In this document: piece by piece, positions 31,127 through 64,000 of the stretch
How the letters are laid out: every line of letters begins with the position of its first letter
Numbering within the stretch: position 1 is the stretch's first letter
Assembly (NCBI GenBank): GCA_964597545.1
Contig: CAZQXN010000005.1
Location: 12,647 to 76,646, forward strand
DNA length: 64,000 bases
Direction of reading: 5' to 3'
Source: an uncultured Planctomycetia bacterium
Lineage (GTDB): Bacteria; Omnitrophota; Gorgyraeia; 1-14-0-20-64-10
Translations under genes and position numbers: made by a program
Notes under the pieces: generated by a model
The model's input: the letters and a program-made list of their open reading frames with translations, nothing else
Told to the model about the DNA's origin: nothing
The model's database searches: none

Positions 31127-31145
31127 CTTCTTTTATCTTTACCTC

Positions 31146-48122: not shown

Positions 48123-49135
48123 CAGGCGCCTCCCAAGGAAACAACCGATCCGGTCCGGATGGAGTGATCAATTCCCTCTGCGACCCGAAGCACCTCGACC
48201 CCGTGGGCAACATCCACTTGAGGGGGCCATCCGTTACGCGCCGAATCCAGGAATGACTTGAGCTCCTCAAGATAGGTGTCCAGAGGCTCTCCCGTGACCT
48301 CCACCGGAAGATAGCGATCCTTCCCCTTCTCGCACACCGTCAAAGCCCCCAGACTGTCATCGACTCGACCTTGGGAGCAATCCCATCGCAGTGCGGCATC
48401 CTCCCCCATCAGCCAAAACCCGCGCCGGTAAGTCGGCTGCAGGCAATCCAGGCTTAAGGTTGCAATCCCTTGGGCGCATGTGTGCAGCAAAACCTTGATG
48501 GTGTCGAACCCGGAAATCTCAAGCGCACTGAGTTTCCCTCCCATGGCCATGACCCGCTCTATCGGACCCATGAAGAAAAGAGCCAAATCAATCTCATGTG
48601 AGCCGTCAAAGATAAGCCCTCCGCCAGCACCCGCCGAAGCCATGTAGCTTTGGCGGTAACTCTTCTGCTTCCACCACTTCGCCAGGTACAGACCGAATTC
48701 AAAGTGAGCCGTCAAGATCTTCCCGAGGACACCGGATTGCACCATCGTTTTCGCGGTTCTGACCGCGGGATGAAAACGAAGATTGTATCCCACCTGAACC
48801 AGTCGCCCGTCGGCCTGTGCGCGCCGAAGAAGCGTTTCGGTCCCATCCACTCCTACCGAGAGGGGCTTTTCCACAAACACATGAGCGCCCGCCTCCAGCG
48901 CCTTCTGGGCCATCTCCACATGTGTCGCCGCGGGGGTGCAGACCAAGACCACATCCGGTCGGCGACCCAGCGCCTCCTCGGGGTTGGGGCAGACCGCAAT
49001 TCCGCAGGCTGCTTGGGTTTTCTCCCGAGCAGAGGGATCGGGATCAACCGCTTCAATGCCCGTGATACCCAGGCGGCGCAGATGATCAATGTGCCTGAGC
49101 CCAATGGAACCGCATCCCAATACCAGCGCCTTCAC
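48122..49135 (-). CDS. Gfo/Idh/MocA-family oxidoreductase
   Basis: MKALVLGCGSIGLRH Rossmann and VEKP motif. Confidence 0.8.
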   Translation of the reverse strand: MKALVLGCGSIGLRHIDHLRRLGITGIEAVDPDPSAREKTQAACGIAVCPNPEEALGRRPDVVLVCTPAATHVEMAQKALEAGAHVFVEKPLSVGVDGTETLLRRAQADGRLVQVGYNLRFHPAVRTAKTMVQSGVLGKILTAHFEFGLYLAKWWKQKSYRQSYMASAGAGGGLIFDGSHEIDLALFFMGPIERVMAMGGKLSALEISGFDTIKVLLHTCAQGIATLSLDCLQPTYRRGFWLMGEDAALRWDCSQGRVDDSLGALTVCEKGKDRYLPVEVTGEPLDTYLEELKSFLDSARNGWPPQVDVAHGVEVLRVAEGIDHSIRTGSVVSLGGA

Positions 49136-49147
49136 GCTCCTTGCCTC

Positions 49148-50218
49148 CTACACATTGACCTGGGTCGCCGTGCGAAGAGCCGGCTGCTTACTTAACAAAA
49201 GGAGTTCCCGCGCCACCCGCAAAGCCCCTTGTCCATCGACCAGGCAAGGACCCGCCTCGGACATGGCAAGCCGAACTTGCCTGTCCAAAAGGATCGGCAA
49301 AAAGGCCTTCCGAAGCTCTGGCAGTGCGTCCGGTTGACGCACGCCGCCGGCTCTCCGGACCGATCCGGCCTGAACCAGATGCTCCAGCTGCCCCTGTTGG
49401 TTGAAAGCGATCTCAAACGCCACGGCGGGACATCCCACGCGAGCCAACTCGTAAAGGGTCTGGCCCGCTCCTGTGACGGCAAGATCCGCCTCCAGAAAAA
49501 GATCCCGGACTTGGTCAGGTGCCTCGATGCAGCGAACCTTGCGGGTCAGCGCGGCTGCGGTGCGGCGAACCTCCTCTGGGTTCCGGAAAAAGGGACCCAA
49601 GACAGCACTCACGCTGAACTGACCCGGTACGCTCTCGAGTAGCCTTAACACCTTTGGCGTCAAGCAGTAAGGATCGGCGCCTCCGAAGATGACGAGCACG
49701 TTTTGGACCTCCGGCCGCACCGGATGGGCAGGAACCTCCCAAAATTCAGAGCGGAGAATAGCGTATTCGGGCCCCTGCAGGAAACGGGTTCCGGGCAAGG
49801 GAGAGCGATACTCCAGCGTGCGCGCATGCGCATCCCCATTGACCACCAGATGGCACGGAAACGGGTGGGGATTGATGTCTTCAATGGCGCAAACCGCAAA
49901 ACCTGCCAGCGTTAGGAATGAAAGGTACTGATCCCCTTCCTCGTCGGAATCAACGATGATCACCCGGCAGTTCCGCTCCTTGGCCATGGCACAGGTTTGT
50001 CTTTGGTCCGCCGGACTCCAGGAGGATGGCGCTCCCAGGGGAAAACCGTCAAACCCAAAGTCCCGCACACGCTTGAGCGCTTCCGGCGCCCCGGAAACCA
50101 GGAAGAAGCTCTTCACTGAAAAGCGCTTGAGTGCTTGCGCCAGAGAGAGACACCGCTGAAGATGTCCCAGGCCCACCCGGTGATCGGCATCTACTCGAAA
50201 GAGGACGTCCATGGTCAT
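49148..50218 (-). CDS. pseG: PseG-like UDP-sugar hydrolase (pseudaminic acid pathway; SpsG/MurG-like fold)
   Basis: VLFRVDADHRVGLGHLQRCLSLAQAL aligns with the Campylobacter PseG N-terminus [26 protein letters not shown]. Confidence 0.65.
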   Translation of the reverse strand: MTMDVLFRVDADHRVGLGHLQRCLSLAQALKRFSVKSFFLVSGAPEALKRVRDFGFDGFPLGAPSSWSPADQRQTCAMAKERNCRVIIVDSDEEGDQYLSFLTLAGFAVCAIEDINPHPFPCHLVVNGDAHARTLEYRSPLPGTRFLQGPEYAILRSEFWEVPAHPVRPEVQNVLVIFGGADPYCLTPKVLRLLESVPGQFSVSAVLGPFFRNPEEVRRTAAALTRKVRCIEAPDQVRDLFLEADLAVTGAGQTLYELARVGCPAVAFEIAFNQQGQLEHLVQAGSVRRAGGVRQPDALPELRKAFLPILLDRQVRLAMSEAGPCLVDGQGALRVARELLLLSKQPALRTATQVNV

Positions 50219-50775
50219 CCCTCGAGCTTTCCGATCGCCTTGAGGAGTGCTGTGGCATACAGGGGATAGAGGGTGTTGTAAACTTCACCAACAGACCGCT
50301 CCCCTGAGAGGGGAATAAACTCCTCCGCCAGGACTTCGCCCTCATCGACCCGCTCTATCATCCGGTGAACGCCGACGCTGGCGCGGGGGCTGCCGTCTCT
50401 CAACATGCGCTCGATCGGCCCGGCTCCTTTGTACTTCCACAGGCAGGGATGCGCGTTAATGCCACCCAGCCGGCAGAGGCGAAGCAGGCGCTCTGGCACA
50501 ATTTCTCGTCCGTGTACAGAGACCACCAGGTCTGCTTCCCGGAAACAGGATTCCGCCCCATCTTGACGGATGGAAGAAAGAATTGGCAGCTTCAGCTCCT
50601 GCGCCAGGCGCTTGAGCGAATCGTCATAGGCCACCACGCCGATGACCCTCAAACCTACGCCCAAGACGGTCAGCAGGCCCATACAGCCTGCCTGCCTGCT
50701 GCCCAGAAAGAGAACCCGAAGGGGAGGATTCACCCTGTGAGACCTCCCCGCTCGAGAAAAGTACGCCTCGCCCAA
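50215..50775 (-). CDS. formyltransferase-domain protein (Fmt N-terminal-like), short
   Basis: INAHPCLWKYKGAGPIERML and GVHRMIERVDEGEVL resemble the catalytic loops of formyl transferases. Confidence 0.5.
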   Translation of the reverse strand: MGEAYFSRAGRSHRVNPPLRVLFLGSRQAGCMGLLTVLGVGLRVIGVVAYDDSLKRLAQELKLPILSSIRQDGAESCFREADLVVSVHGREIVPERLLRLCRLGGINAHPCLWKYKGAGPIERMLRDGSPRASVGVHRMIERVDEGEVLAEEFIPLSGERSVGEVYNTLYPLYATALLKAIGKLEG

Positions 50776-50788
50776 GGTCTAACGGGAC

Positions 50789-51838
50789 TCATCTCAGATC
50801 CCCCAAGCTGACAGACTCCTTGGGGCGTAGATCCCGCAGCGCCTTTTTTCCGATCATCGACGGCAGAGCGCCGGGTGGCGCTCCAGGCAGATGTTTTCCG
50901 TTGCGAAGAACAATCAGGTGGCTTGCCTGCAAGACCTCTCCGGCCCGGACAGCCTGGGAGGTAAAGACCGAGCGGCGCCCAAAATCATGGAGCTCCTTCT
51001 CTGCCGGATGCATCTGTTTGGCCCCGCTTCCCAGCGCCGTCTCGGCGAGATGAACCAACCGAACCATCTCCCGCAACTCATCCGGCTCGACGGCGAAACG
51101 GTGATCTGGTCCAGGCAGCGCATTGCTGAAGGTGAAATGTTTTTCAATCAGGTCTGCTCCCAAGGCTGCCGCGGTCACCGGAGCCAACCACGGGTGGCGG
51201 GAATGGTCTGAAAGGCCGGCGGGAACCTGGAAGGTTGAGCGGAGTGTCTCAAGAGCGCGGATGTTCAACGTCTCCAGAGGAGCCGGGTAAGCGGCGGTGC
51301 ATTGCATCAAGAGGAGTTGTGGGTTGCCGGTCTTCCGGAAGATCTCTACCAGCTCTGAGACCTCATCAAGCTGCGCCGTACCGGTTGAGATGATGACCGG
51401 TTTGCCCTTTCCTGCCACATGTTGGACCAGGGGGAAATGGGTCATTTCATAAGAGGCAATCTTATGCGCGGAAACATACGGATCGCACCGGTCTGCCGAT
51501 TCTTCGTCAAAAACAGAGACCAGGAAAAGGATCTCCAATTCCTTGCACCGGTCCGACAACCGAGGCAACCATTCGTACGGCATTTCCATCTGGCGAATGA
51601 TGTCGTAAATGGATCGGGAATCCTTGAGATAGTCGCTCTTCCCCGCGGATTTCGGATACAGCTTCTCGGCCCGAAACAGCTGGAACTTGACGGCATCCGC
51701 GCCAGCCTGGGAAGCCAACTCCACCAGGCGGAGGGCCTGCTCCAAGCTCCCGTTGTGGTTGGAACCGGCTTCGGCAATGACAAAACAAGCCGCACCCATT
51801 CCAACCTGCCGCTTCCCAATCTGAATCGTCTGCATCAT
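50789..51838 (-). CDS. NeuB-family nonulosonic acid synthase (PseI/LegI/NeuB-type), full length with SAF domain
   Basis: FVIAEAGSNHNGSLEQALRLVELASQAGADAVKFQ, LSDHS, EKHFT, C-terminal SAF-like region. Confidence 0.85.
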   Translation of the reverse strand: MMQTIQIGKRQVGMGAACFVIAEAGSNHNGSLEQALRLVELASQAGADAVKFQLFRAEKLYPKSAGKSDYLKDSRSIYDIIRQMEMPYEWLPRLSDRCKELEILFLVSVFDEESADRCDPYVSAHKIASYEMTHFPLVQHVAGKGKPVIISTGTAQLDEVSELVEIFRKTGNPQLLLMQCTAAYPAPLETLNIRALETLRSTFQVPAGLSDHSRHPWLAPVTAAALGADLIEKHFTFSNALPGPDHRFAVEPDELREMVRLVHLAETALGSGAKQMHPAEKELHDFGRRSVFTSQAVRAGEVLQASHLIVLRNGKHLPGAPPGALPSMIGKKALRDLRPKESVSLGDLR

Positions 51839-51859
51839 CGCCGTCGCTCCGCTCCCTGC

Positions 51860-53575
51860 TTAAAGATCCGCATGCGTGGCACCCTGAACAGCCGGCGCGC
51901 TCATCGGCTGCGCCTCACCGGTATGTGGGTGGCGAACCGTATTCTGGGCGCCCAGTGTCTGAATGGCTCGCCAAGAAAGCTCAATCACCTGTTCATCCGG
52001 CATATCGCTGAAATTGGTTCGAACCTCTTCCCCCTGCTCACCCAGGCGGAGGAGATACTGCTCGATGAGTGTTTCATCGGCCGGCCCGGGGCGGCCGGTC
52101 ACCGCCTTGGCGATCAGCCCGCGCTCAAGCGCCAGGTCCCAAAATGCCGTAGCCGGATAGGCGGTCGTGAAAAAGAAAACCTCAGGGGCCAACCCCACCC
52201 GCTTGCAGAAGTCGACCGTCTCCTGGACCGTCCGGGGGGACTCGCTCGGAGAACCGACCATGAACGAGCAGTCGGCATAACCCATGACGCGTTGGGTTTC
52301 CCGGATCGCCAGCTCCATCTTTTCCAGGGTCTGACCTGACTTATCGATCGCCTTGAGCACCGCGGGGCTGGCCGATTCGACGCCGTAACCGGCCTGGCGC
52401 ATGCCCACCTCATGGGCCTGCTCCAGCATGTGCGCACGTCCCTCTTTCTTCGCCCGAGTGACATCATCAGCGATGATATTGGTTCGGCAGGTTCCGCCCC
52501 AGAGCACCTCAAACCCGGATTCCTTCTTGCGCCGACGCAGTTCCTCGCAGAACTTCAGCGCCCAGCGGTAGTCGGTCATCATCAGATCATCCAGGAAATG
52601 AATGTAGGTCAAACCGTAACGCGCCTTGAGAAACACCATCTCATCGACCACATCGCCAGGCGAGCGCAACCGGTACTGCTTGCCCAGGTAGGCCGCATAA
52701 CAGTAGTCGCAGGCCGTAACCGCGTAGGGGCATCCTCGGGAGGCGATCATCGACGCCGAAGCAGCATCCTCTTGGATCGGTGTGCCTCTGACCCATTTGG
52801 TTGCCCAATTCAGGTGTCCAACGGGATTGCGCTTATACACCTCATCCAGGGGCCAGAGAGAGCGCAGCGGCCAAGGCAGCGCATCCAAACCCGCCACATT
52901 GCTCTTGACGGAAGGGCGCAAGCCATTGTCGATGTATTCCCATTCCCCTGAACTGTTCTTGCGCCGGAACACCACGCCCCGGATCCCATCGTAGGAAACG
53001 CCGGTTTCTATCCGGTGCAGCAACTCCGAGAAGGTCACCTCCCCTTCCTCCTGGATGACGGCGTCAACCCCCATCCGCTTGAGCATGAAGAGCGGCATGG
53101 AAGAGGCGATCCCGCCTCCCAAGACAACGGGAATCTCCGGATGGATCTTCTTGCACAGTCGGGCAATCTGGCGAATCCGGCCGTATTGGGTCACGATGCC
53201 GCCCAAACCAATGAGGTCCGGCGTCTGACGCATCAGGGCCGCGACCACTCGCTCTTCAGTCCAGGCCGACAACGCCTCGCCGGAGAGCTCCATCGGCCCT
53301 TTTCGAGCGGCGTTGAGATCCAGGACGTTCACCCGATGGCCGTCCATCCTGGCGACCGAAGCGATGTAGCCGTGGCCAATCGGCATGATGTTGGGATAGG
53401 ACCATTCCCGGATCGGAGCATTGATGAGCAGGATGTCTAATCCGTTTGCGCGGAGCGGAAATTGTTTGAGGGATTTCTCGTCTGTCAACCGCGGCCAGTC
53501 AGGTCGCAGCACTTCTCCATCTCGGAATCGCTGGTAGAAACGCTCTGGAACTGCCTGGGCAGAGTATCCGGCCAT
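51860..53575 (-). CDS. cobalamin-binding-domain radical SAM enzyme (class B-like) with non-canonical Cys spacing
   Basis: N-terminal B12-binding-like domain (DILLINAP...HRVNVLDLN). Cluster motif read as C-PYAVTA-C-DY-C (CX6CX2C) rather than CX3CX2C. Confidence 0.65.
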   Translation of the reverse strand: MAGYSAQAVPERFYQRFRDGEVLRPDWPRLTDEKSLKQFPLRANGLDILLINAPIREWSYPNIMPIGHGYIASVARMDGHRVNVLDLNAARKGPMELSGEALSAWTEERVVAALMRQTPDLIGLGGIVTQYGRIRQIARLCKKIHPEIPVVLGGGIASSMPLFMLKRMGVDAVIQEEGEVTFSELLHRIETGVSYDGIRGVVFRRKNSSGEWEYIDNGLRPSVKSNVAGLDALPWPLRSLWPLDEVYKRNPVGHLNWATKWVRGTPIQEDAASASMIASRGCPYAVTACDYCYAAYLGKQYRLRSPGDVVDEMVFLKARYGLTYIHFLDDLMMTDYRWALKFCEELRRRKKESGFEVLWGGTCRTNIIADDVTRAKKEGRAHMLEQAHEVGMRQAGYGVESASPAVLKAIDKSGQTLEKMELAIRETQRVMGYADCSFMVGSPSESPRTVQETVDFCKRVGLAPEVFFFTTAYPATAFWDLALERGLIAKAVTGRPGPADETLIEQYLLRLGEQGEEVRTNFSDMPDEQVIELSWRAIQTLGAQNTVRHPHTGEAQPMSAPAVQGATHADL

Positions 53576-53577
53576 CT

Positions 53578-54786
53578 TTACGCCTCCCTCCCGGAGCGAG
53601 ATGGAACATCAGAGGGCAGAACAGCGGGAGGCGGCCGGTGAAACCGCTCCAGCGCCGACCGAACCGAATGGATCACAAAGTCAACCTCGGCATCGGTCAT
53701 CTTCGGGAAAAGCGGCAGGGTAACAGCCCGGTCAAAATAACGCTCTGAGATAGGGTGGTCGCCCCGCGCGCAACCAAAACGCTGCTGGTAGAAGGGCTGC
53801 AGATGAACCGGCCGGTAATGGACATTCACCCCCACTCCCCTGGCCTGAAGCTCAGAAAAAATTTCCTTTCGGGAGGCCCGCAGCTGCTCCAGCGGCAGCC
53901 TGACAGCATAGAGATGCCAGGCATGCCGGCCGTTTCCGGCGGCCTGCAGCTCAAGCCCCAACCCTTGGAAGGCTTGCGTGTAGGCGGCAGCGATCTGGGC
54001 CCGGCGGTCGAGGAAGCGGTCCAGCTTCCCCATCTGCGCCAGCCCCAGCGCGCACTGAAAATCGGTGATGCGGTAGTTGTACCCCAGCCGTTGCATCTGG
54101 GCACCCCCCGGTTCTGGCGGGTTGAGCTTTACCAACCCATGGTGCCGGAAGCTGCGCAAATGCTCCACGAACTCCGGCCGATTGGTCAGCACCATCCCCC
54201 CTTCTCCGGTGGTAATGTGCTTGACCGGATGAAAGCTGAAGACCGTCATCTCCGAATGCGAGCAGCTGCCGACCCGCTCACGCCGGCCTTCACGAGTCAC
54301 CCATTCCGCGCCCAAGGCATGACAGGCATCCTCAACAACCCTCAGTCCCTTCCGGCGCGCGATGTCCCCAATGGCCTCCATGTCGCAGGGCAGTCCCGCA
54401 AAGTGCACCGGCAAAAGAAGGCGAGTCCGGGAAGTAATCCGTTGGGGCAGCCGCTTGGGGTCTAGGTTCAGGGTCTCGGGGTCCACATCGGAAAAAACCG
54501 GTTTGCCGCCAAGGTACACGACAACGTTGGCGGTCGCCACAAAGGTGAGCGGCGTCGTGACCGCCTCTTCCTGCGGCCCAAGACCCGCCACAAAACAGGC
54601 AGCATGAAGGGCAGCGGTCCCGCTGGAAAAAGCGACCCCGAAGCGGGCGCCGCAGCGCTCGGCCACGGCCCGCTCCAGCGCTTCGATGCGGGGCCCTTGC
54701 GTAATCCACTCTGAACGCAGCGCCTCAATCACTGCGTCAAGGTCTTCCTCGTCGAGCCAGTGGCGGCCGTAGGGGATCGGTTTCAC
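53578..54786 (-). CDS. DegT/DnrJ/EryC1/StrS-family PLP sugar aminotransferase (PseC/LegC-like)
   Basis: Family-typical body. Start re-placed at GTG 54786 (VKPIPYGRHWLDEED...), which overlaps the PseB-like stop (GTGA). Confidence 0.85.
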   Translation of the reverse strand: MKPIPYGRHWLDEEDLDAVIEALRSEWITQGPRIEALERAVAERCGARFGVAFSSGTAALHAACFVAGLGPQEEAVTTPLTFVATANVVVYLGGKPVFSDVDPETLNLDPKRLPQRITSRTRLLLPVHFAGLPCDMEAIGDIARRKGLRVVEDACHALGAEWVTREGRRERVGSCSHSEMTVFSFHPVKHITTGEGGMVLTNRPEFVEHLRSFRHHGLVKLNPPEPGGAQMQRLGYNYRITDFQCALGLAQMGKLDRFLDRRAQIAAAYTQAFQGLGLELQAAGNGRHAWHLYAVRLPLEQLRASRKEIFSELQARGVGVNVHYRPVHLQPFYQQRFGCARGDHPISERYFDRAVTLPLFPKMTDAEVDFVIHSVRSALERFHRPPPAVLPSDVPSRSGREA

Positions 54787-55808
54787 CAGCCCTCCCGGTT
54801 GTCCACCAGGGCCAGGTCCACCCCTTGGATCAGCTGTTGAATCTCGTCCTTGGAAAGCCACTGCGTGTTGGCGTTGCTGGCATAGGTGAAATCCGGCGGT
54901 GTCGGTTTTCCCTCAATCCAGTTAATTTCCCGCTGGTGGGGACCAAAATCCGGCAGGATGACGTAAAAATCATCCAGCTCGATGGTTCGGCGCGCATCAT
55001 CAGAAGAAACCAGTACCTCATGCAGTTTTTCTCCCGGGCGAATGCCGACGATTTGGTGGCGGCAGTCAGGCGCAAGCGCCTCTGCCAAATCCACAATGTT
55101 CATGCTGGGGACCTTCGGCACAAAAATCTCGCCGCCGTGCATGCGCTCCAACGCGCTGAGCACCAAATCGACCGACTGATCCAGCGTGATCCAAAAACGG
55201 GTCATTCTCTGATCGGTAATCGGAATGGAGCCAGTCTTGCGCAGCTTGAGAAACAGCGGAATCACGGAACCGCGGGAACCGACCACATTGCCGTATCGAA
55301 CCACGCTGAACTTGGTTTTGTGGGGCCCGGAGTAGACATTGCCGGCAATGAACAGCTTGTCGGAGCAGAGTTTGCTCGCACCGTAGAGATTGATCGGGTT
55401 GGCAGCCTTATCGGTGGAAAGGGCCACCACGTTCTTTACCCCCTGGTCGATGGCGGCATCGATCACGTTGGCCGCCCCTAAGACATTGGTCTTGATCACT
55501 TCCAAGGGGTTGTACTCGGCCGTGGGAATCTGCTTAAGGGCAGCCGCATGCACCACCACGTCCACTCCATTAAAAGCGCGTTGCAGCCTGTCCTTATCCC
55601 GAACATCGCCGATGAAAAAACGCAGTCTCGGGTCGCAGAACTGCCTGGCCATCTCAGACTGTTTCCACTCGTCCCGGCTGAAAATGATCAGCTTCTTGGG
55701 CTGATGATCACGCAAAAGAACTTGAGCAAATTTTTTTCCAAAGGAACCGGTCCCGCCGGTCACCAAAACCACTTTGTCGTTAAATATCATTTCGACTCCT
55801 GTCTTCAT
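54783..55808 (-). CDS. pseB: UDP-N-acetylglucosamine 4,6-dehydratase (inverting), PseB/FlaA1-like
   Basis: MIFNDKVVLVTGGTGSFGKKFAQVLL...LIIFSRDEWKQSEMARQF...RFFIGDVRDKDRL is colinear with Campylobacter/Helicobacter PseB. Start placed at the M whose ATG overlaps the upstream stop. Confidence 0.85.
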   Translation of the reverse strand: MKTGVEMIFNDKVVLVTGGTGSFGKKFAQVLLRDHQPKKLIIFSRDEWKQSEMARQFCDPRLRFFIGDVRDKDRLQRAFNGVDVVVHAAALKQIPTAEYNPLEVIKTNVLGAANVIDAAIDQGVKNVVALSTDKAANPINLYGASKLCSDKLFIAGNVYSGPHKTKFSVVRYGNVVGSRGSVIPLFLKLRKTGSIPITDQRMTRFWITLDQSVDLVLSALERMHGGEIFVPKVPSMNIVDLAEALAPDCRHQIVGIRPGEKLHEVLVSSDDARRTIELDDFYVILPDFGPHQREINWIEGKPTPPDFTYASNANTQWLSKDEIQQLIQGVDLALVDNREGW

Positions 55809-58156
55809 ATTGAATGGGGAAGCCTTCGCTCCCACGCGCATTGCACATTCCGGCCCGAAACAAGCCGTACCAAGAACCGCCCAAACCCATAGTCATCCTT
55901 GCGCCACGGGATGGGATCTTCAAAATAAGCTGGATTGCGCAGTCGACTGAGATGCTTGCCTATCCCGTCAAGGGATGCCAGCTGGGGTATGCGATCAAGT
56001 TGGCGGATAATCATCTCCGGATCAGACTCCAGGAAGCGAATCTGTGAGAGCCAGATGCGACCCATCTGGGCGTTTCCCCGCCGGTGCTCAAGATACGAAA
56101 GGGCAAAGAGACAGGCGATCGTCTCCCAAATCTCCTGCTCCATAACCTGTTGGATGCGCTTCTGCTTGTGCGTGGCGCGCCCACCCCAGCGCACATACCG
56201 ATCACCCATCTGGCGCACCCAAGGACGCAACGGCTGGCCCCCGGTCACCCAACGCAGGTCTGAAAGTGGCAGCGAAGGCAGCAGGTGCCTCAGCAGGAAG
56301 GGTCGGGTTTGAAGGGCCTGCAGCAGGAGGCGCTGCGCTTCTTCGCCCTTGTTCTGCTCTAAGCGTTTCAGACCCAGCATCAACCTCGTCCCAAAGGGAT
56401 CTACCCACCTCCCCCGCTCATCAAAAACCAAATGGCCCTGTATGCGGTAGCCAACTTCGGCCGATTGAAAGGCTGCGAGATTGACCTGAACACCCTCCAG
56501 TGAGGTTTCTCTCAGGGCAGCGGCCAGGAGGTTCCGGAAGTTCTGGCGCTTACGTGAATCCGCGTGGGAATGTCCCGGCGCCAGCTGTTGATGCGGCATG
56601 GCCACCACCCCCTGAATCGCTATCTCCCGGGGTTCAAGGGCATCCAGACGGTCAGAGGCTGAGACATCCCTGCGAATCAGGTCTGCCGTGCGCAAATCAT
56701 CGTAAAGCAGGTAGGTGTTGACAAGACGACCTCGAAAGAGCTCTGCCCGGACCGCAAGCAGGTTGGGAACCGCCAGAAGAACAAAGAGAGCGACAACAAA
56801 AGCGTGACGCGTTGTCTCTGCCCAGCCCAGGCGCCTGGAGATTCCGCCCAACAAAGCGGCAAGACCTAACGACAAGAGAACAGCGAGGATAGGTGTCACA
56901 TAGATCATGTAGCGCGACGGCACAGCCGGAGGGAAGCTCACATAGTGATTGAGCAGGTGCACGAGGACAACGCCATACCAAACCCCCCAAACCACCAGCG
57001 CACCCCTTTTCTTGATGGTCTCTCTGAAGAAGTTCCAGATCAGCAGCACAGTGAGTCCGCCTGCCCAAAGGCTCATTTGAGCCGGAATATAGTGCTGGGC
57101 CTGACTCGAGTCCATGAGCCGCGCTGTCTGCAGCGGATTCAAGAATGTCGCCAAGCTTGTGACCAGAGGCGAAAGGGCGTTGTACGGCAGCAGAAGCTGC
57201 CGCGTATCCCTAAGCGCAAGCCATCCCCATACCAACCCCAGTGAGATCGCAAGCACAATCCACCCCAAGCGCGAATGACGCAAGAAACCAGCTCCGCCCT
57301 TGAGCAGCAGGCGAAAGGCGCCGAGTGCTACGCCTCCCAGCGCCAAGAGCACTCCCCATTTGACACCCGCAGGGATAGCCCACTGTACGATGGCATCATT
57401 GATGATGACATCCCCGGCAAAGGCCAATGCGAAGGTAGGATAAACCAGTGCCGCGACAAAAAGGGGCAACCACCGATTGAAACGGTTGAGGCGCTCCTTG
57501 GGATCACGTGAAACAACCAAAAGGTGCGCCGCAATCAGCAAGGGAGCAATCACAGCGGAGCGCTGCAGAGAAGCCACCACAACCCACGCCAAGGTCCACC
57601 CGTAAAGCCATCGTGCGCCGCTCAGGCTCGATGTCGGGCGAGCTTCAATCTGGAGATAACCAGACAAAACAACCAGGATGGTAAAACAGGCGAAGAGGTG
57701 CTGGAAGGCTGCCGGCCAGAGTACCGCATAGAAATGGGAAAAGGCCGTAAGGAACACAACGGCTGCCCCGAAGGCCACCTCACGAGTCAACTCCATCAGC
57801 CGGCAGACCCGATACAGCAGCGCCGCGGTTGCAGCGTAAACGACGACAGAGACCCCCATCAGGGACTGGATTGGATTGTTTGCGAAAACCGTCACGAGAA
57901 AGAGGTAGCTCTTTAAGACCGGCTGACCAAACTCAATCGGCCAGGGGCCCAGCAGAAAGCGTGCGAGCTCAAGAAAGGATTTGCCCTCCGTCTGTTGGGC
58001 AAGGGTGGGAAGCATCCACCACAGATCATTTTCCGGCAAGGCCATAACCCAGGGCTGGCGGATTATCGCCAGAAAGGCAGCCGCCAGCGCTACGAAACAA
58101 CCGCCGTAAAACCATCTTCCCCCGACCCCTTTCTCGCCAGGAAGCTGCTTTCCCAT
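55805..58156 (-). CDS. large polytopic membrane protein with C-terminal helical-repeat (TPR-like) domain; candidate GT-C-type transferase
   Basis: 783 aa. More than 10 N-terminal TM helices. The C-terminal third is soluble with repeat-like helices. Confidence 0.45.
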   Translation of the reverse strand: MGKQLPGEKGVGGRWFYGGCFVALAAAFLAIIRQPWVMALPENDLWWMLPTLAQQTEGKSFLELARFLLGPWPIEFGQPVLKSYLFLVTVFANNPIQSLMGVSVVVYAATAALLYRVCRLMELTREVAFGAAVVFLTAFSHFYAVLWPAAFQHLFACFTILVVLSGYLQIEARPTSSLSGARWLYGWTLAWVVVASLQRSAVIAPLLIAAHLLVVSRDPKERLNRFNRWLPLFVAALVYPTFALAFAGDVIINDAIVQWAIPAGVKWGVLLALGGVALGAFRLLLKGGAGFLRHSRLGWIVLAISLGLVWGWLALRDTRQLLLPYNALSPLVTSLATFLNPLQTARLMDSSQAQHYIPAQMSLWAGGLTVLLIWNFFRETIKKRGALVVWGVWYGVVLVHLLNHYVSFPPAVPSRYMIYVTPILAVLLSLGLAALLGGISRRLGWAETTRHAFVVALFVLLAVPNLLAVRAELFRGRLVNTYLLYDDLRTADLIRRDVSASDRLDALEPREIAIQGVVAMPHQQLAPGHSHADSRKRQNFRNLLAAALRETSLEGVQVNLAAFQSAEVGYRIQGHLVFDERGRWVDPFGTRLMLGLKRLEQNKGEEAQRLLLQALQTRPFLLRHLLPSLPLSDLRWVTGGQPLRPWVRQMGDRYVRWGGRATHKQKRIQQVMEQEIWETIACLFALSYLEHRRGNAQMGRIWLSQIRFLESDPEMIIRQLDRIPQLASLDGIGKHLSRLRNPAYFEDPIPWRKDDYGFGRFLVRLVSGRNVQCAWERRLPHSI

Positions 58157-58160
58157 GGGC

Positions 58161-59777
58161 TTAAGCCATCACTTTCTTCTGGGAGGCCAGCGACCACCCT
58201 GACGGAATGTAGAGGCTGCGCTGCTTGACCGGGACCCTGCGCTGCAGGTGGGGATTGAGCCGGTTGACAAACCACTCCAAAGGAAAAAGGGGCAAGAGCG
58301 AGATAACCAAGTTGGTCGCGAGGGCAAAGGAGAGCCGAAACAGGTGGAGCCACTCGCCGAGGAACAGATACCAATGGGAACGCAGTTTAAACCACCCCGG
58401 CCCATGCTTTCGGGTGATGACCCCCCAGAGGACCCGGGGCCTAAAGTTGGAAAGGAGATTGTATCGGATAACATCCCGCGTCAATTCCCACTCCGAGGTC
58501 GTCTCCGGAACATAGGGCAGCGGCCTGCGCCGGGACAACGGCAGCGCCATTTCAGAAAGAGAGGAGGTGAAATTTTCCCAATGGCCCTGCTTGCACATTC
58601 TCCGGGAACCTTGGACATCACGGTAGAAGGGGGTACCCGGATAAGGGATTAGGTTGTTGTACTTGATGAAGGTGGGCGAGAGGGAATTCGCAAAGCGGAC
58701 AGTCTCAACCCGATCGGCATGCGTCTCGGTCGGAAAACCAAAGATCATAAAGATGGCCACATCCATCCCATGCTTGCGCGCCACCGCCACCGCATCGCGG
58801 TGCTGCTGGAGCGTCTCCCCCTTATGAACGATGTTGGCCAGGCGCTCCACACCCGTCTCCACACCAAAACCAACCGAATCAAAACCGGCCTCCTTGAGCA
58901 GCGGAACCATCTCCGGGTAGAAATTATCCGCCCGGGTCTGCAGGGAAAAAGAACACTTTTCTTTAAGCCCAGAGGCCTTGAGCGCTGCGCAAATCTCATG
59001 AACGCGAGACTTCTTAAAGCATAGGTTGTCGTCCAAAAAGAAGAGGGACTTGACGCCGAAGCGATTGACCAGGGTGTCCAGCTCACTCATGATGGTTTGG
59101 ATCGACTTGTAGCGGTAGGTAGAGCCGGTCATCATCCGCTGGCTGCAGTAGCTGCACTTGTAGGGACAGCCGCGGGAGGTGACGATAAAGCCCCAGTCAT
59201 AGGTGGTGCGGTGCTTGGCCTTCTCGAGCATATTGACAAACATGTCATAGGGAAAGGGGGGCAAACTGTCTAAGTCTTTGATGAGCGGCTCTTCTGGGGT
59301 ATGAACGATTCTGTCTTCATGTCGGAAGGAAAGCCCTCGGATCGAAGAAAAATCGGTTTCCCCTTGCCGAATGGCGTCGTAAAGCCTCAAGAGAGACCGC
59401 TCCCCTTCCCCGCGCACCACAAAATCGATTGTCGGAAAGGAAAGCATCTCATCCGGCAAAGCGGTGGCGTGGAATCCGCCGACGATCACAGTGGAGTCAG
59501 GGTATTTGGCCTTCAAGAGTGCGGCCAGCTCAAAGGTCCGGGCGGCCTGCGCAGTCAAAACCGTGATGCCAAACACATAGGGCTTAGGCAAACCCTCAAG
59601 CGCATCATCAAGGTTTTGCCAATTGAGCTTGACCACTTCCTCATCGATGATGCGCACCGCATGGCCATGGGCTTTGAGTTGTGCGGCAAGGCAGCCGATC
59701 GACATTGGCAGCGATAACGGCGCAAAACGGCTGATGGAACCACCATAGCCGGCATTGCAGGGATTAATGATGAGCAT
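58161..59777 (-). CDS. cobalamin-dependent (class B) radical SAM enzyme, probable methyltransferase
   Basis: N-terminal B12-binding domain. Canonical SRGCPYKCSYC (CX3CX2C). Confidence 0.8.
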   Translation of the reverse strand: MLIINPCNAGYGGSISRFAPLSLPMSIGCLAAQLKAHGHAVRIIDEEVVKLNWQNLDDALEGLPKPYVFGITVLTAQAARTFELAALLKAKYPDSTVIVGGFHATALPDEMLSFPTIDFVVRGEGERSLLRLYDAIRQGETDFSSIRGLSFRHEDRIVHTPEEPLIKDLDSLPPFPYDMFVNMLEKAKHRTTYDWGFIVTSRGCPYKCSYCSQRMMTGSTYRYKSIQTIMSELDTLVNRFGVKSLFFLDDNLCFKKSRVHEICAALKASGLKEKCSFSLQTRADNFYPEMVPLLKEAGFDSVGFGVETGVERLANIVHKGETLQQHRDAVAVARKHGMDVAIFMIFGFPTETHADRVETVRFANSLSPTFIKYNNLIPYPGTPFYRDVQGSRRMCKQGHWENFTSSLSEMALPLSRRRPLPYVPETTSEWELTRDVIRYNLLSNFRPRVLWGVITRKHGPGWFKLRSHWYLFLGEWLHLFRLSFALATNLVISLLPLFPLEWFVNRLNPHLQRRVPVKQRSLYIPSGWSLASQKKVMA

Positions 59778-59786
59778 GAAATGATC

Positions 59787-60599
59787 TCACTTTCGGGGGG
59801 CACCCCGACGCAGAAACACTTCCCGCAGCAGCTGCAGCAGGTATACTGCGCCCCACTGAAAGATCTTGAGCTTCCTATCCCCGCCGATGCGGGCCGGTTC
59901 ATCCGCTGGAATCTCTCCCCAACGAACACCCCACTTAAGGGATCGAAAGGACATCAAGGGAATCCAATCCACCCGCGTCCGAAAGAGCCTCTCTAGACCC
60001 TCAAACTCCTCGGGTCTGTCCAAGCCCAGCTGCATCGGCAGCTCCTTTCGGTGAGCGCGAAGCATGACCATCGGATCGGTCATGCGGGCAGAACCCCTGG
60101 GGCGTAAAAACCAATTGCTTAAGGTGCGATACATCCAGTTGCCAAAGCGGGTCAGGCTGTCGTCATCATCTGAGATGGCATCCCCCAAATAGCGGGAGGC
60201 AATCACCAGTTCCAGATTCTCCCCCTCTATCTTGTCGAGAAGCTGAGGGATCACCTCGGGGATGGAGTTGCCGTCCGGGGTGAAATAGACCACAACCTCA
60301 CCGCGGATCAACGGCCAAACCTCCTGATAGGCCGACCGGAACCCCGCCCGCTTCTGAACATACACCTGGTATCCCTGCTCACGAGCCCACTCCACGGTGC
60401 CGTCGGTTGAGCCGCCATCAACCACCAAGATTTGGTCCACCCAGCTGCGGCTGACTCTCGGCATGATGTGTCGCATCCCATCAATCTCGTTGAGGGTCAT
60501 GACCACCAGTGTCGCCCTCAGGGTTCTCTGCTTGGGCTTGCCTTGAGCGGCAGCGACAGCTTGGGGTTGCTTTGGCGCAGCGAGGGTTTCTTTGCTCAT
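59787..60599 (-). CDS. GT2-family glycosyltransferase (polyprenyl-phosphate sugar synthase / DPM1-like)
   Basis: VVMTLNEIDGMRHIMPRV...ILVVDGGSTDGT. Confidence 0.75.
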   Translation of the reverse strand: MSKETLAAPKQPQAVAAAQGKPKQRTLRATLVVMTLNEIDGMRHIMPRVSRSWVDQILVVDGGSTDGTVEWAREQGYQVYVQKRAGFRSAYQEVWPLIRGEVVVYFTPDGNSIPEVIPQLLDKIEGENLELVIASRYLGDAISDDDDSLTRFGNWMYRTLSNWFLRPRGSARMTDPMVMLRAHRKELPMQLGLDRPEEFEGLERLFRTRVDWIPLMSFRSLKWGVRWGEIPADEPARIGGDRKLKIFQWGAVYLLQLLREVFLRRGAPRK

Positions 60600-61651
60600 G
60601 GGGTCGCAGTGCTGGTTGAAAAGACGCGTTCAGCCTCAGCCACAGAAAGAGGCGTGGGGGGCTGGGTTTCGGCGTCAAAGAAGATGATGCGTGAACCTGA
60701 GCTTTCAAACTCAAGGGGCACGTGCAACAAGTTCCCTAAGGCTGCGCGAACTGCGGGTTTGTTTTCAGGGCGAACAAAGAGCAGCAGGAATCCCCCGCCA
60801 CCGGCGCCCAAGAGCTTGCCTCCCAAGGCCCCCGCAACACAGGCGCGCTCATAAATCTGGTCGATCATGGCATTGGAGATGCGCGAGGTAATGCTGCGCT
60901 TGAGTTTCCAGCCCTCATCCAGCAGGCGGCCGAAGTCATCCAGGGATCCTTCCCCCTGAAGGATTCTGATCGCCTCACCCACCATCTGGTGCAGCGATCG
61001 GAGGGTCTCGGCTTTACTGTGGGTGGCCTGAATCTGCTCGGCTGCAATCTCAGAGGCAGTGCGAGACAGCCCCGTATAGATAAGCATCAGGTGATCCTGG
61101 AGCGCGGCCAGGCGCTCCCGGCCCAAAAGAATGGGCGAAACCTGAATGGCCCCATCCTTTGAAAAATCGACCCGGTTAAATCCGCCAAAAGCCGCCATCA
61201 CCTGGTCCTGAGAACCAACGCTTTCCTTGAGCCGTTCCTGTTCAACATGGATGGCCTCGGTGGCCAGCTTCATCTTGCTGGGCATCACCCCCTGAAGCCC
61301 GTAAAGGGCATGGAGCAAACCTACAGTGAAGGAGGAGCTGGAGCCCAAACCGGTTCTCGCCGGCAAGTCTCCATCGTGGTGAAGTTCAATCCCGGAGGGG
61401 ACATTCAGGTGGCGCAGCACCTCGCGAACCGAAGGGTGCTTAATCTCCTCGATCTTGCGTACCAGCTCAATCTGGGACCAAACAATCCGGTAGGCATGGT
61501 TAAAGAAGGGCGGCAGCCATCGGCAGGTGATATAGCAGTAGCGCCGGATGGTGGTTGCCAGGGTTGAGCCCCCATGTTCACGAAACCAAGTTGGATAATC
61601 GGTTCCTCCGCCAAAAAAGGAGATTCGAAAGGGCGTTCGGGAGATGATCAT
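60596..61651 (-). CDS. GHMP-family sugar kinase (HddA-like heptose-7-phosphate kinase type)
   Basis: MIISRTPFRISFFGGGTD N-terminus and PARTGLGSSSSF ATP-binding motif. Confidence 0.8.
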   Translation of the reverse strand: MIISRTPFRISFFGGGTDYPTWFREHGGSTLATTIRRYCYITCRWLPPFFNHAYRIVWSQIELVRKIEEIKHPSVREVLRHLNVPSGIELHHDGDLPARTGLGSSSSFTVGLLHALYGLQGVMPSKMKLATEAIHVEQERLKESVGSQDQVMAAFGGFNRVDFSKDGAIQVSPILLGRERLAALQDHLMLIYTGLSRTASEIAAEQIQATHSKAETLRSLHQMVGEAIRILQGEGSLDDFGRLLDEGWKLKRSITSRISNAMIDQIYERACVAGALGGKLLGAGGGGFLLLFVRPENKPAVRAALGNLLHVPLEFESSGSRIIFFDAETQPPTPLSVAEAERVFSTSTATP

Positions 61652-63237
61652 GGGGTCTGACCCCTGCTGTTGAGGGGTCTGACCCCTACTTCGACTCCGG
61701 TGTGTTCACCGATTTTTTCCTTTAGGATTTCTCGTTTTAAGCGATGAGCCGCCATCTGGCGAATGTGCGCCACAGTCTCAGCTCCAAAGGTCTGGCGCAC
61801 CCGCTCCAAATATCGCGGGGAGTTGTAGTATGCCTGAAAAGCTCGATCCCGGAATTCCAGGACTTCGGCTGCGGTCAGATGCTTGGTGGGCAAAGGCAAA
61901 CAATCGGCCGAATGCTGTGAATAGCCGCTCCACTTCTCGGGCAACACCCAGCCCTCTTGCACCGCGGTTTGGTAGAGGTCAGACCCCGGATAGGCCATCG
62001 CAGAATAAAAGTTGGCAAATTCGCAGTTGAGATCCAATGCAAGGTCCAGGGTCTCCTGCATGGTCCTCAGATCATCCTCAGGCAGGCCAAAGATGTAGTT
62101 GCCGATCACATGAATTCCGGCTGCCCAGGTTTTCCCTAAGGTCTCTTTGATGTCTCCCTGATCAAATCCCTTTTGAACATCGTCGCGAACCTCGGTGTTG
62201 GCCGCTTCGATTCCATAGGCCAACCAATTGATCCCTGCGGCCTTGAGCTTAGGGAACATGTCATCTCGAACGGTATCCACGCGCGCATAGGCCCAGATGT
62301 TCAGGTCCAAACCTCGTTCAATGATTCCGTCGCAAATCTCGGATACATGCTTCGGGTTGAGCACAAAGAGCTCATCGGCAAATTTGACGTTCCGCACCCC
62401 GTATTGACTAACCAGGGTATCCAGCTCAGCCAGAACCGCCTGAGGGCTCCACAATCGGTAGGTGTTCACCCCCGCCTTGAAACCGGCGGCCTTCTCCCCT
62501 TCCTTGAAGGGAGCTTGAATGCAGCAAAAGCTGCAGCGAAAAGGGCAGCCCAGGGTGGTATAGATCGCCGCATACGGTTGACGCTCAAGTCCATCCAGGC
62601 AGTGCCAGTTGTGGGCCCTATAGCGTTCCATCGGCAGCAAATCCCAGGCAACGCCGGGCATCTCCCGATCCAAATCCATGACCAATGGGGCCGGGGGATT
62701 TGTCCGGATCACGCCCCTCTGCCAAAAGAGCAAACCGGCAACATCGGTTAAACCCGAGCGACTGCCGGTCCGAAGCGCCTCAACCAGCTGCGCCAGGGTG
62801 ATGGGTCCTTCTCCGCTGCAAACAAAATCGGCAGCCTCTTCCCGAAGGGTTTGCTCAGGCAAAGCGGCAACATGGCCCCCCACCAAGATCACCCTTTGCT
62901 CAGGTGAGGTTTGCTTGACGGCGCGGCAAACCGCCCCGGCAGCAGGCATGTTCTGCGTAGAGGCAGAGGGCTGATGCCCGTAGACCGCAACCGCAACCAG
63001 GAGGGGATTGAGTGCTCGAAGGCGTTCGGCGGCTTGATCGGCCGTCAACCCCTCCGCTGCAGCATCCAGAACCGCCACCCGGAACCCCTTAAGCCTCAAG
63101 TACGTTGCCATCAGTCCCGCCCAAACCGGCGGCTCAATGGCTGAAAGCTTGGATCCCAAAGCCTGGTAGGCCTGGGCCTGGTTGGCCGGATTGACCAGCA
63201 CCACGTCAATGGGCTTAGGCAAAGTTGGCATAGGCAT
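61648..63237 (-). CDS. cobalamin-dependent (class B) radical SAM enzyme
   Basis: B12-binding domain (VVLVNPANQ...FRVAVLDAAAEG), then canonical LGCPFRCSFC. Confidence 0.8.
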   Translation of the reverse strand: MPMPTLPKPIDVVLVNPANQAQAYQALGSKLSAIEPPVWAGLMATYLRLKGFRVAVLDAAAEGLTADQAAERLRALNPLLVAVAVYGHQPSASTQNMPAAGAVCRAVKQTSPEQRVILVGGHVAALPEQTLREEAADFVCSGEGPITLAQLVEALRTGSRSGLTDVAGLLFWQRGVIRTNPPAPLVMDLDREMPGVAWDLLPMERYRAHNWHCLDGLERQPYAAIYTTLGCPFRCSFCCIQAPFKEGEKAAGFKAGVNTYRLWSPQAVLAELDTLVSQYGVRNVKFADELFVLNPKHVSEICDGIIERGLDLNIWAYARVDTVRDDMFPKLKAAGINWLAYGIEAANTEVRDDVQKGFDQGDIKETLGKTWAAGIHVIGNYIFGLPEDDLRTMQETLDLALDLNCEFANFYSAMAYPGSDLYQTAVQEGWVLPEKWSGYSQHSADCLPLPTKHLTAAEVLEFRDRAFQAYYNSPRYLERVRQTFGAETVAHIRQMAAHRLKREILKEKIGEHTGVEVGVRPLNSRGQTP

Positions 63238-64000
63238 CCCTTCGAATGACGTGGTAACCCTTAATCAACTCCGTAATGCCTGCGCGCAAGCTCACCTGCG
63301 GTTTAAATCCTGTTTTTTCAACCCGTTCGTTGCTGACAATGTAATCCCGCTGATCCGGATCAGCCCCCACCTCAGCCTCGGTAAAGTAAAAATCAGGCAG
63401 CTGCTCTCGAATCACCTCGCACAGCTCTCGCTTGGAGAGGTTGGCATCGGATAATCCTACGTTGTAGGGCTGGCCCTTCATGCTGTCAAAGCGATCGATG
63501 GCATGCACGAAAACGCGGGCCACATCCCGAACGTGAATGTAATTTCTCTTGAAGTGACTCTGAAAAAGAACGATGAAGCGGTCGGTGGCCGCCCGATAAA
63601 CAAAGTCATTGACCAACAGATCCAGCCGCATCCTGGGAGATATTCCAAAGGCGGTTGCCAGCCGAAAGGTCACGCTGTTGCCGGCATCGAGAATCACCTT
63701 TTCGGCCTCGACCTTGAGCCGGCCGTAGGTCGAAATGGGTCGCAGCGGCGTCTCCTCCGTGCAATGGGTTCCCTTCTCCCCGACTCCATAACCGCTGTTG
63801 GTGGTCGGAAAGAGGATCCGATGCCCAGGGGAACGCAGGCGAACAAGGCTCTTGATCGCGTCGAGGTTGACCGCTTTCGCCTCCATGGGATCCCGCTCGC
63901 AGATCGGCGCTCCAGTGAGACAGGCCAACGGGATGATCACATCGACCTGCTTGAGCGCTTCCGAAACCAAGCGTTCATCCCGGACGTCCCCCCGCCATAC
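63215..64000 (-). CDS. NAD-dependent epimerase/dehydratase (SDR-extended), C-terminal part; gene continues beyond the window end
   Basis: In-frame upstream translation to the window edge reads YGGGDVRDER-L-VSEALKQVDVIIPLA (the GDVRD...D-V-I-HLAA region of extended SDRs). The Rossmann N-terminus is therefore outside the window. Confidence 0.7.
   Translation of the reverse strand, partial: VWRGDVRDERLVSEALKQVDVIIPLACLTGAPICERDPMEAKAVNLDAIKSLVRLRSPGHRILFPTTNSGYGVGEKGTHCTEETPLRPISTYGRLKVEAEKVILDAGNSVTFRLATAFGISPRMRLDLLVNDFVYRAATDRFIVLFQSHFKRNYIHVRDVARVFVHAIDRFDSMKGQPYNVGLSDANLSKRELCEVIREQLPDFYFTEAEVGADPDQRDYIVSNERVEKTGFKPQVSLRAGITELIKGYHVIRRDAYANFA

Follow-up and report, generated by a model that had tools for sequence, protein, structure and literature searches.

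Three B12-domain radical SAM families and their probable role in sugar tailoring within two conserved glycan-precursor gene modules

Radical S-adenosylmethionine (SAM) enzymes of class B carry an N-terminal cobalamin (B12)-binding domain ahead of the radical SAM core, and most of those characterised, including GenK, Fms7 and MoeK5, which methylate sugar carbons, are methylases (PMC9204698). TsrM, TokK, CysS, MgmA (QCMT) and OxsB, whose structures are solved, consist of an N-terminal Rossmann-type B12 domain, a radical SAM barrel and a C-terminal domain. AprD4, the radical SAM 1,2-diol dehydratase of apramycin biosynthesis, has an amino sugar as its substrate and the same two-domain layout, but itself binds no cobalamin (PMC12931638). 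The fosfomycin enzyme Fom3, which is paired with Fom1, needs a substrate conjugated to cytidine monophosphate (CMP), according to work cited in PMC9204698. Among surface sugars, the nonulosonic acids (sialic, pseudaminic and legionaminic acids) hold a key place; as far as is known, they differ from one another in stereochemistry and in what is attached at N and O, and the canonical pseudaminic acid pathway comprises PseB, PseC, PseH, PseG, PseI and PseF. Here we analyse a stretch of 64,000 nucleotides (the window) from contig CAZQXN010000005.1 of an uncultured Planctomycetia bacterium, which contains three genes of class B architecture, designated rSAM-A, rSAM-B and rSAM-C, among genes for glycan biosynthesis.

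Architecture, family boundaries and operon setting of the three enzymes

The explanation that we favour, and consider probable, is that rSAM-A, rSAM-B and rSAM-C belong to three uncharacterised families of class B architecture that modify sugars in two conserved modules for glycan precursors, with no relation to the PepM protein encoded in the same window. This explanation has a computed part (the domains, the cluster motif with its conservation, the limits of each family and the linkage of genes) and an inferred part (substrates, order of steps, use of cobalamin and methylation). Enzymes of this kind are already known; the variants found here and their pathway context have not been described previously.

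The initial annotation of the window had assigned N-terminal B12-binding domains followed by radical SAM cores to the genes at 51860, 58161 and 61648, and this assignment is upheld by Pfam for all three open reading frames (ORFs), which lie on the minus strand at those coordinates (Table 1). The PF02310 B12-binding model scored 68.7, 54.4 and 60.5 bits in rSAM-A, rSAM-B and rSAM-C, respectively (cut-off 32.1), and the PF04055 radical SAM core with its three-Cys motif was matched in each. The three proteins are 23-27% identical to one another and are therefore not recent duplicates. Judged by sequence, each represents a separate, conserved, uncharacterised and unnamed family. No relatives beyond 28% identity were found in phage and plasmid collections.

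The whole window is a single minus-strand glycan operon. Intergenic gaps of -79 to +21 nt over 46077-63970 indicate co-transcription of the genes in that part, and rSAM-A is flanked by a PseC aminotransferase gene (gap of 2 nt) and a NeuB-type synthase gene (gap of 21 nt), which is the placement that had been noticed at first. A scan of the window with Rfam, which would include a cobalamin riboswitch, gave zero matches.

Table 1. Coordinates of the radical SAM genes and of associated features in the window
Feature	Coordinates	Strand	Evidence and remarks
rSAM-A	51860-53575	-	571 aa; B12-binding 64-186 (window 53018-53386), E 5e-19; Radical_SAM 277-457 (window 52205-52747), E 2e-11 (Pfam)
rSAM-A cluster motif CPYAVTACDYC (CX6CX2C)	52700-52732	-	C282, C289, C292; in frame, no stop
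rSAM-B	58161-59777	-	538 aa; B12-binding 24-129; Radical_SAM 198-363, E 1e-25 (Pfam); hydrophobic C-terminal helix 477-495
rSAM-C	61648-63237	-	529 aa; B12-binding 27-151; Radical_SAM 225-400 (Pfam)
PseB, UDP-GlcNAc 4,6-dehydratase (inverting)	54783-55841	-	TIGR03589 517 bits vs cut-off 408
PseC aminotransferase	53578-54861	-	TIGR03588 444.5 vs 423.5; stop codon 2 nt before rSAM-A start
NeuB-family nonulosonic acid synthase, divergent	50789-51838	-	PF03102 E 9e-79; TIGR03569 315 vs 400, TIGR03586 278 vs 340
Short formyltransferase-like protein	50215-50775	-	PF00551 E 4e-13; weak fmt/ArnA similarity
PseG, UDP-sugar hydrolase	49148-50218	-	TIGR03590 159.8 bits vs cut-off 153.55
GFO/IDH/MocA oxidoreductase	48122-49135	-	Pfam; directly beside rSAM-A in 11/21 related loci
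CTP_transf_3 CMP-type cytidylyltransferase fused to class III aminotransferase	46077-48122	-	Pfam
783-aa membrane protein, putative GT-C-like transferase	55805-58156	-	Hydropathy scan; ~11 predicted helices
GT2, polyprenyl-phosphate sugar synthase-like (AglJ / dolichyl-P-hexose transferase-like)	59787-60599	-	Scores all below curated cut-offs
GHMP sugar kinase (HddA-like)	60596-61651	-	Pfam/NCBIfam
NDP-sugar epimerase/dehydratase (SDR)	63215-63970	-	Listed 251-aa ORF matches C-terminal part of Pfam Epimerase only
PepM-NTP_transf_3 (nucleotidyltransferase) fusion	31146-32840	-	PEP_mutase model 314 bits vs cut-off 319.55

The cluster motif of rSAM-A and its nonulosonic acid context

The three cluster cysteines of rSAM-A are arranged as CX6CX2C, whereas rSAM-B (CPYKCSYC) and rSAM-C (CPFRCSFC) have the canonical CX3CX2C. 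The unusual spacing had been pointed out in the initial annotation, and it proved to be genuine. A homolog search covering 5.8 billion proteins listed 120 full-length relatives of rSAM-A with 66-76% identity, 119 of which carry CPYAxxACDYC and none of which carries CX3CX2C. Among representatives clustered at 50% identity, the rSAM-A family is tight, and identity falls off steeply beyond it; the nearest outgroup (P0362, 53% identity) has the canonical CFYRCDFC, and CX3CX2C is found in 130 of the best 150 representatives listed, including most of the relatives of ~460 aa (~27-41% identity). When rSAM-A is aligned jointly with canonical relatives, none of the columns that hold C282, C289 and C292 varies; the change of spacing therefore amounts to an insertion of three residues in the cluster loop. 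As the alignment has it, the insertion is one acquired by the rSAM-A family inside the B12 clade, its 53% sister and the farther relatives being canonical, and the resulting family-specific CX6CX2C loop is predicted to hold a [4Fe-4S] cluster.

A sequencing or frame artefact, or the mark of a decaying pseudogene, could in principle give rise to such a motif. The sole weak point in this respect is the lower local confidence of the structural model around residues 281-300 of rSAM-A (predicted local distance difference test, pLDDT, 72-76). However, the reading frame is intact, the motif is common to the 119 independent homologs, which come from many assemblies, and in one homolog (P0361) an intein is inserted directly before the third cluster Cys. 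Motif conservation, intact frame and intein placement thus rule this explanation out, and we give it practically no weight. Intein-splicing domains also occur in P0375 and in an rSAM-C homolog (P0253), and the dehydratase of locus L037 (L037:1209-3101) holds a LAGLIDADG-type intein; inteins thus interrupt several of these glycan enzymes. The 4.2-kb contig of the outgroup P0362 (L051), with many small ORFs, an HNH endonuclease and a GNAT acetyltransferase, has a phage-like look.

The RadicalSAM.org survey places CX6CX2C in Megacluster-5-2 and not in the B12-binding Megacluster-2-1 (PMC9477430). As in the non-canonical motifs of that survey, the rSAM-A motif retains three cysteines and widens the first spacer. 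With its CX6CX2C loop, this family of the B12 clade offers a natural experiment on the spacing tolerance of the SAM-binding cluster.

The gene context of rSAM-A resembles the pseudaminic acid pathway in several respects. PseB, PseC and PseG score above their equivalog cut-offs, and the window also encodes a NeuB-family synthase and a CTP_transf_3 cytidylyltransferase. In contrast to the canonical pathway, no PseH-type, GNAT or hexapeptide acetyltransferase was found in any window ORF scanned, and the synthase lies below the cut-offs of both the PseI (TIGR03586) and the NeuB (TIGR03569) models. The window has in addition rSAM-A itself, the GFO oxidoreductase, the formyltransferase-like protein and the class III aminotransferase fused to the cytidylyltransferase. 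Because of these extra enzymes, the missing PseH/GNAT and the divergent synthase, the product of 46077-55841 is probably a non-canonical nonulosonic acid. Since no PseH or GNAT protein was found, the formyltransferase-like protein may be the N-acylating enzyme of the pathway. The operon contains three NeuB-family genes, all on the minus strand: the standalone synthase of Table 1, a 590-aa fusion of NeuB with a CTP_transf_3 cytidylyltransferase (6165-7937) and a 226-aa protein that spans only part of the NeuB domain (1085-1765), which suggests more than one ulosonic acid product.

This association is conserved well beyond the window. A scan of species-representative genomes yielded 27 rSAM-A loci, to which loci from Cytophagales and Betaproteobacteria were added. 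Their hosts include Planctomycetia, Omnitrophota, Deltaproteobacteria, Nitrospiria, Rokubacteria, Methylomirabilia, Terriglobia, Chloroflexota, Verrucomicrobiota, Chromatiales, Pseudomonadales, bacteria of the Candidate Phyla Radiation (CPR), a Pacearchaeota archaeon and the cyanobacterial isolate Lusitaniella coriacea LEGE 07167, and across the bacterial phyla and the DPANN archaea the family is 63-76% identical. Linkage was counted within 10 kb, in those 21 loci that had 5 kb or more of sequence on each side. All 21 contain a NeuB homolog (median distance 2283 nt) and a CTP_transf_3 cytidylyltransferase, the latter within 3 kb in 18 of them and at a median of 1015 nt, which makes it the tightest conserved partner. 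DegT aminotransferases and PseG were each found in 17 loci, PseB in 16, class III aminotransferases in 12 and the GFO oxidoreductase in 11, where its median distance of 20 nt means that it is adjacent. As a genome has only few NeuB genes, we infer that the linkage of rSAM-A to NeuB and to the cytidylyltransferase is far beyond chance. Moreover, a distant relative (P0383, 36% identity) is a B12-rSAM-NeuB-SAF fusion and other relatives are fused to GT9, GT2, GT1 or Epimerase_2 domains; the wider clade is therefore glycan-associated. Tailoring of a hexose or nonulosonic backbone, raised at the outset only as an alternative to phosphonate methylation, thus fits rSAM-A well, given its universal partners and the NeuB fusion, and has the support of comparative genomics.

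The GFO oxidoreductase and the fusion of cytidylyltransferase and class III aminotransferase (similar to glutamate-1-semialdehyde aminomutase) recur together in many phyla as a unit immediately downstream of rSAM-A, as seen in the window (46077-49135, minus strand) and in loci L007, L011-L013, L016, L018, L025, L029 and L031. The unit suggests oxidation and transamination of the nonulosonic acid or of its CMP form. Other neighbours vary; Chromatiales, for instance, have HisH/HisF-like genes there, and one CPR genome has an AMP-binding enzyme. In a Terriglobia locus (L021:7954-13513) rSAM-A lies between a fused E1/transketolase and a lipoyl-domain E2 acyltransferase, which hints at an unusual N-acyl group supplied by a system like the 2-oxoacid dehydrogenases.

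According to these data, module 1 (46077-55841) would be a nonulosonic acid pathway of pseudaminic acid type, built from PseB, PseC, rSAM-A, the NeuB-family synthase, the formyltransferase-like protein, PseG, the GFO oxidoreductase and the cytidylyltransferase-aminotransferase. In it, rSAM-A would use radical chemistry to functionalise a C-H bond of the nonulosonic acid or of the compound directly before it, at about the stage of the synthase and of CMP activation, most likely by a cobalamin-mediated C-methylation. Because the CMP-type cytidylyltransferase is its tightest genomic partner, rSAM-A may, by analogy with Fom3, act on a CMP-activated substrate, which would be a nonulosonic acid and not a phosphonate. 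The linkage of rSAM-A to synthase and cytidylyltransferase predicts a modification at the carbon level, for which current surveys of nonulosonic acids do not look.

The proposed nucleotide-sugar and polyprenyl-phosphate module of rSAM-C and rSAM-B

The rSAM-C family is very large and highly conserved, with 7797 of 8000 candidates at E <= 1e-10. Besides the query and one relative of 89%, its top 120 homologs are 64-72% identical, with a mean column identity of 71%. Every examined locus with an rSAM-C relative contains a GHMP kinase. These loci also hold an NTP-transferase, often accompanied by SIS and HAD genes that recall the GDP-heptose route, together with short-chain dehydrogenases/reductases (SDRs) of the GDP-mannose-dehydratase type, a DegT aminotransferase and a thiamine pyrophosphate (TPP)-dependent E1/transketolase pair. 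A fusion of DegT with rSAM-C also exists (P0263). In the window, the match of the SDR to only part of the Epimerase domain places the N-terminal part of the protein farther upstream, at the listed start or past it.

In the window rSAM-B stands between the GT2 gene and the gene of the 783-aa membrane protein. A GHMP kinase is always near its relatives of at least 54% identity with enough flank, and near that of an Elusimicrobia locus with 47% (L036); usually GT2, rSAM-C and a large membrane protein are found there as well. This context is not shared by a Nitrospina locus (L035) whose rSAM-B relative is also 47% identical. A hydropathy scan detected a hydrophobic C-terminal segment in 93 of 116 rSAM-B homologs, as opposed to 4 of 120 for rSAM-C and 8 of 120 for rSAM-A. 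The 783-aa membrane protein is syntenic in L028, L037, L040 and L045, and its equivalents in L034 and L036 gave PMT_2 or faint YfhO matches.

The gene order is shared with a close relative of the window, L037, whose rSAM-B is 94% and rSAM-C 87-89% identical to those described here. It encodes, in this order, a dehydratase (with the intein mentioned above), a helix-turn-helix/NTP-transferase protein, DegT, E1/transketolase, two SDRs, rSAM-C, GHMP kinase, GT2, rSAM-B, the membrane protein, PseB, rSAM-A, GFO and the cytidylyltransferase-aminotransferase. The genes from the dehydratase to the first of the two SDRs indicate how the operon continues past the window's end. An identical order of the three radical SAM genes is present in L028, L037, L040 and L045. 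On the other hand, L031 has SDR, GHMP kinase, GT2 and membrane protein in the same order without rSAM-B or rSAM-C, and L005 keeps GT2 and membrane protein, again without either; rSAM-B and rSAM-C are therefore optional tailoring steps.

The identity of L037 to window 46077-63970 is a mosaic, high for the GHMP kinase (97%), rSAM-B (94%), GT2 (90%) and rSAM-C (87-89%) and lower for the membrane protein (69%), PseB (78%), rSAM-A (73%) and GFO (69%), which suggests that recombination, with its breakpoint near 58160, has replaced the nonulosonic acid module. L037 lacks PseC between PseB and rSAM-A.

Module 2 (55805-63970, running on upstream of the window in the sense of transcription) would thus build a modified NDP-sugar. 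The ArnC/ArnT and GtrB/GtrC systems provide the logic on which we model the order of its steps. In this scheme, rSAM-C would act on a soluble nucleotide sugar beside the DegT aminotransferase, the SDR enzymes and the TPP-dependent E1/transketolase, and GT2 would load the sugar onto polyprenyl phosphate. rSAM-B, with its hydrophobic C-terminal helix, may modify the polyprenyl-linked sugar at the membrane, and the 783-aa protein would then transfer it. Families B and C, both large and unnamed, mark a conserved NDP-sugar/polyprenyl-phosphate sugar module with TPP-dependent and radical steps.

Chemistry of the three enzymes and the PepM fusion

None of the three enzymes reached a curated NCBIfam cut-off; those of the best-scoring models are 480-750 bits. 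The best match of rSAM-A was ApyD (102 bits), with ladderane and BchE models also matched; rSAM-B matched BchE (TIGR02026) with 188.6 bits against a cut-off of 481, and rSAM-C matched HpnJ (TIGR03471) with 161.5 against 577.6. The AprD4 model (NF033070, cut-off 500) gave 38, 78 and 71.5 bits for rSAM-A, rSAM-B and rSAM-C, and the TsrM model (TIGR04428, cut-off 500) 32-59 bits. Searches of the PDB with single sequences and family profiles returned distant class B enzymes only, AprD4 (PDB 6FD2) being the top profile match of all three families (155, 87 and 75 bits). The AlphaFold2 model of rSAM-A (pLDDT 90.6) had TsrM as its best fold match (E 5e-24, template modelling (TM) score 0.60), with OxsB, AprD4, MgmA, CysS and TokK as further matches (E 1e-15 to 5e-24 for the whole set). 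That of rSAM-C (pLDDT 80.3) matched TsrM and AprD4 within the same class B set, with the highest target-normalised TM-score, 0.77, for AprD4. The distance of the three proteins from solved methylases (TsrM, TokK, CysS, MgmA) is much the same as that from non-methylases (AprD4, OxsB). They share the three-domain architecture of the solved class B enzymes, but at 15-20% identity and, in rSAM-A, with the altered cluster motif; moreover, their substrates would be nucleotide- or lipid-linked sugars of surface glycans instead of antibiotics, peptides or cofactors. In a phmmer alignment Tyr-Ala follows the third Cys of rSAM-A where TsrM has Val-Glu; the Glu two residues after the third Cys of TsrM is a ligand of the unique iron.

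The DxHxxG motif, which the initial annotation had suggested checking as a B12 ligand, is absent from rSAM-A, rSAM-B and rSAM-C. This absence is uninformative on B12 binding, because in all solved B12 radical SAM structures the cobalamin is base-off and has no protein histidine ligand (PMC12931638, a 2026 review). The same review states that non-methylating members show no features that set them apart from alkylating ones, and that the Rossmann-like domains of AprD4 and ArsL are only remotely related to the B12 fold and bind no cobalamin. C-methylation of a sugar is our leading guess for the chemistry of the three enzymes, and for each of them the balance between methylation and other radical chemistry is roughly even.

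It is also conceivable, at a clearly lower level of confidence than the favoured explanation as a whole, that the pathways are as described and at least one of the three enzymes is a non-methyltransferase, perhaps cobalamin-free, with another radical reaction on its sugar. Such a reaction could be the dehydration or deamination of a 1,2-diol or amino alcohol (AprD4- or DesII-like), followed by the GFO reductase or the class III aminotransferase, or else an epimerisation, a ring contraction or the formation of a carbocycle (OxsB- or HpnJ-like). The rank of AprD4, a sugar diol dehydratase, in the profile searches of all three families and in the fold comparison of rSAM-C speaks for this, as do the best NCBIfam matches (HpnJ for rSAM-C, BchE for rSAM-B, ApyD, ladderane and BchE for rSAM-A), which are non-methylases or of unknown chemistry, and the likeness of the two kinds of enzyme noted in the review. 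Next to rSAM-A there is an oxidoreductase in 11 of the 21 loci, and the cytidylyltransferase carries a fused aminotransferase; the pairing of the AprD4 dehydratase with the AprD3 reductase resembles the arrangement of rSAM-A with the adjacent GFO gene. Against it, the AprD4, HpnJ and BchE models score only 38-189 bits with cut-offs of 480-580, and most characterised class B enzymes, with GenK, Fms7 and MoeK5 among them, methylate. To our knowledge, moreover, a reaction of the AprD4 type would find no remaining vicinal diol in the core of canonical pseudaminic acid.

Several points weigh against sugar tailoring by methylation in the two modules, as favoured here. The adjacencies of rSAM-A conflict: in many loci PseC immediately precedes it, pointing to the UDP-sugar stage, whereas the universal partners NeuB and cytidylyltransferase suggest a late stage; action at the UDP-sugar stage is thus possible. 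AprD4, which tops the profile matches of all three families, does not bind cobalamin, and methylation is inseparable from other radical chemistry by sequence or fold. The 783-aa membrane protein has no Pfam match, and the C-terminal membrane helix of rSAM-B is barely above the threshold of a simple hydropathy scan. Finally, nothing was found in the literature that ties radical SAM/B12 enzymes to nonulosonic or pseudaminic acid, to heptose or to C-methylation of glycans.

A more specific version of the favoured explanation is that rSAM-A represents a widespread and so far unrecognised CX6CX2C family for radical carbon modification, for example C-methylation, of a CMP-activated or pre-activation nonulosonic acid, and that rSAM-B acts on a polyprenyl-phosphate-linked sugar. 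Taken jointly, we regard these two proposals as tentative. If they are true, C-methylation by rSAM-A would give a branched or ten-carbon sialic-acid-like sugar, and Planctomycetia, Omnitrophota, Acidobacteriota, CPR bacteria, DPANN archaea and some cyanobacteria would be expected to display a new class of nonulosonic acid at their surface. Polyprenyl-phosphate-linked sugars would be a substrate new to radical SAM enzymes, rSAM-B being the first to act on them. The predictions are directly testable, since family A has a cultured host in L. coriacea LEGE 07167 and family C occurs in records named as cyanobacteria.

The initial annotation had preferred a different logic, in which the radical SAM enzymes would be paired with PepM as Fom3 is with Fom1. 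One of the three would then be a methylase acting on a cytidylylated hydroxyethylphosphonate derived from the PepM-nucleotidyltransferase fusion, and the glycan would be decorated with 2-hydroxypropylphosphonate. Indeed, this fusion is encoded in the same 64-kb operon, the substrate of Fom3 is a CMP conjugate, and a published sequence similarity network (PMC9204698) groups Fom3 with MoeK5 and with HpnJ, the best NCBIfam match of rSAM-C. Through its match to HpnJ, rSAM-C may belong to the Fom3/MoeK5/HpnJ region of sequence space, which is home to both methylases and non-methylases. However, in the fusion the PepM domain precedes the nucleotidyltransferase. Its gene is 19 kb away from the closest radical SAM gene, with ~15 glycan genes between, and a scan of 62 ORFs of the window found no TPP-dependent phosphonopyruvate decarboxylase. 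None of the 51 loci that hold relatives of rSAM-A, rSAM-B or rSAM-C contains PepM, whereas the sugar partners are conserved in them. The PhpK (TIGR04479) and Sden_1168 (NF038361) P-methyltransferase models gave 62-119 bits against cut-offs of 575-600, and the curated cut-off of a phosphonate or P-methyltransferase model was reached by none of the three enzymes. The Fom3-like pairing is thus not supported, and we consider it very improbable.

The neighbours of PepM (20944-34821) encode an SIS isomerase, a transaldolase or fructose-6-phosphate aldolase (FSA), an HpcH/HpaI aldolase, an HAD phosphatase, two SDRs, a KdsB-like cytidylyltransferase and a 2-hydroxyacid dehydrogenase with an N-terminal extension of ~200 aa. 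Reduction to phosphonolactate and an aldol step are both possibilities for pulling the unfavourable PepM reaction forward.

Elsewhere in the window, two proteins encoded at 17225-20957 (minus strand) have weak, below-cut-off DUF4330 and IPT/TIG matches, with a 508-aa protein with a weak PMT_2 match between them; these may be glycosylated target proteins or assembly proteins of the operon. The ORFs listed at 39440-41491 and 41226-43349 (minus strand) overlap by 266 nt, and the true start of the ATP-binding cassette (ABC) exporter is probably downstream of the first ATG.

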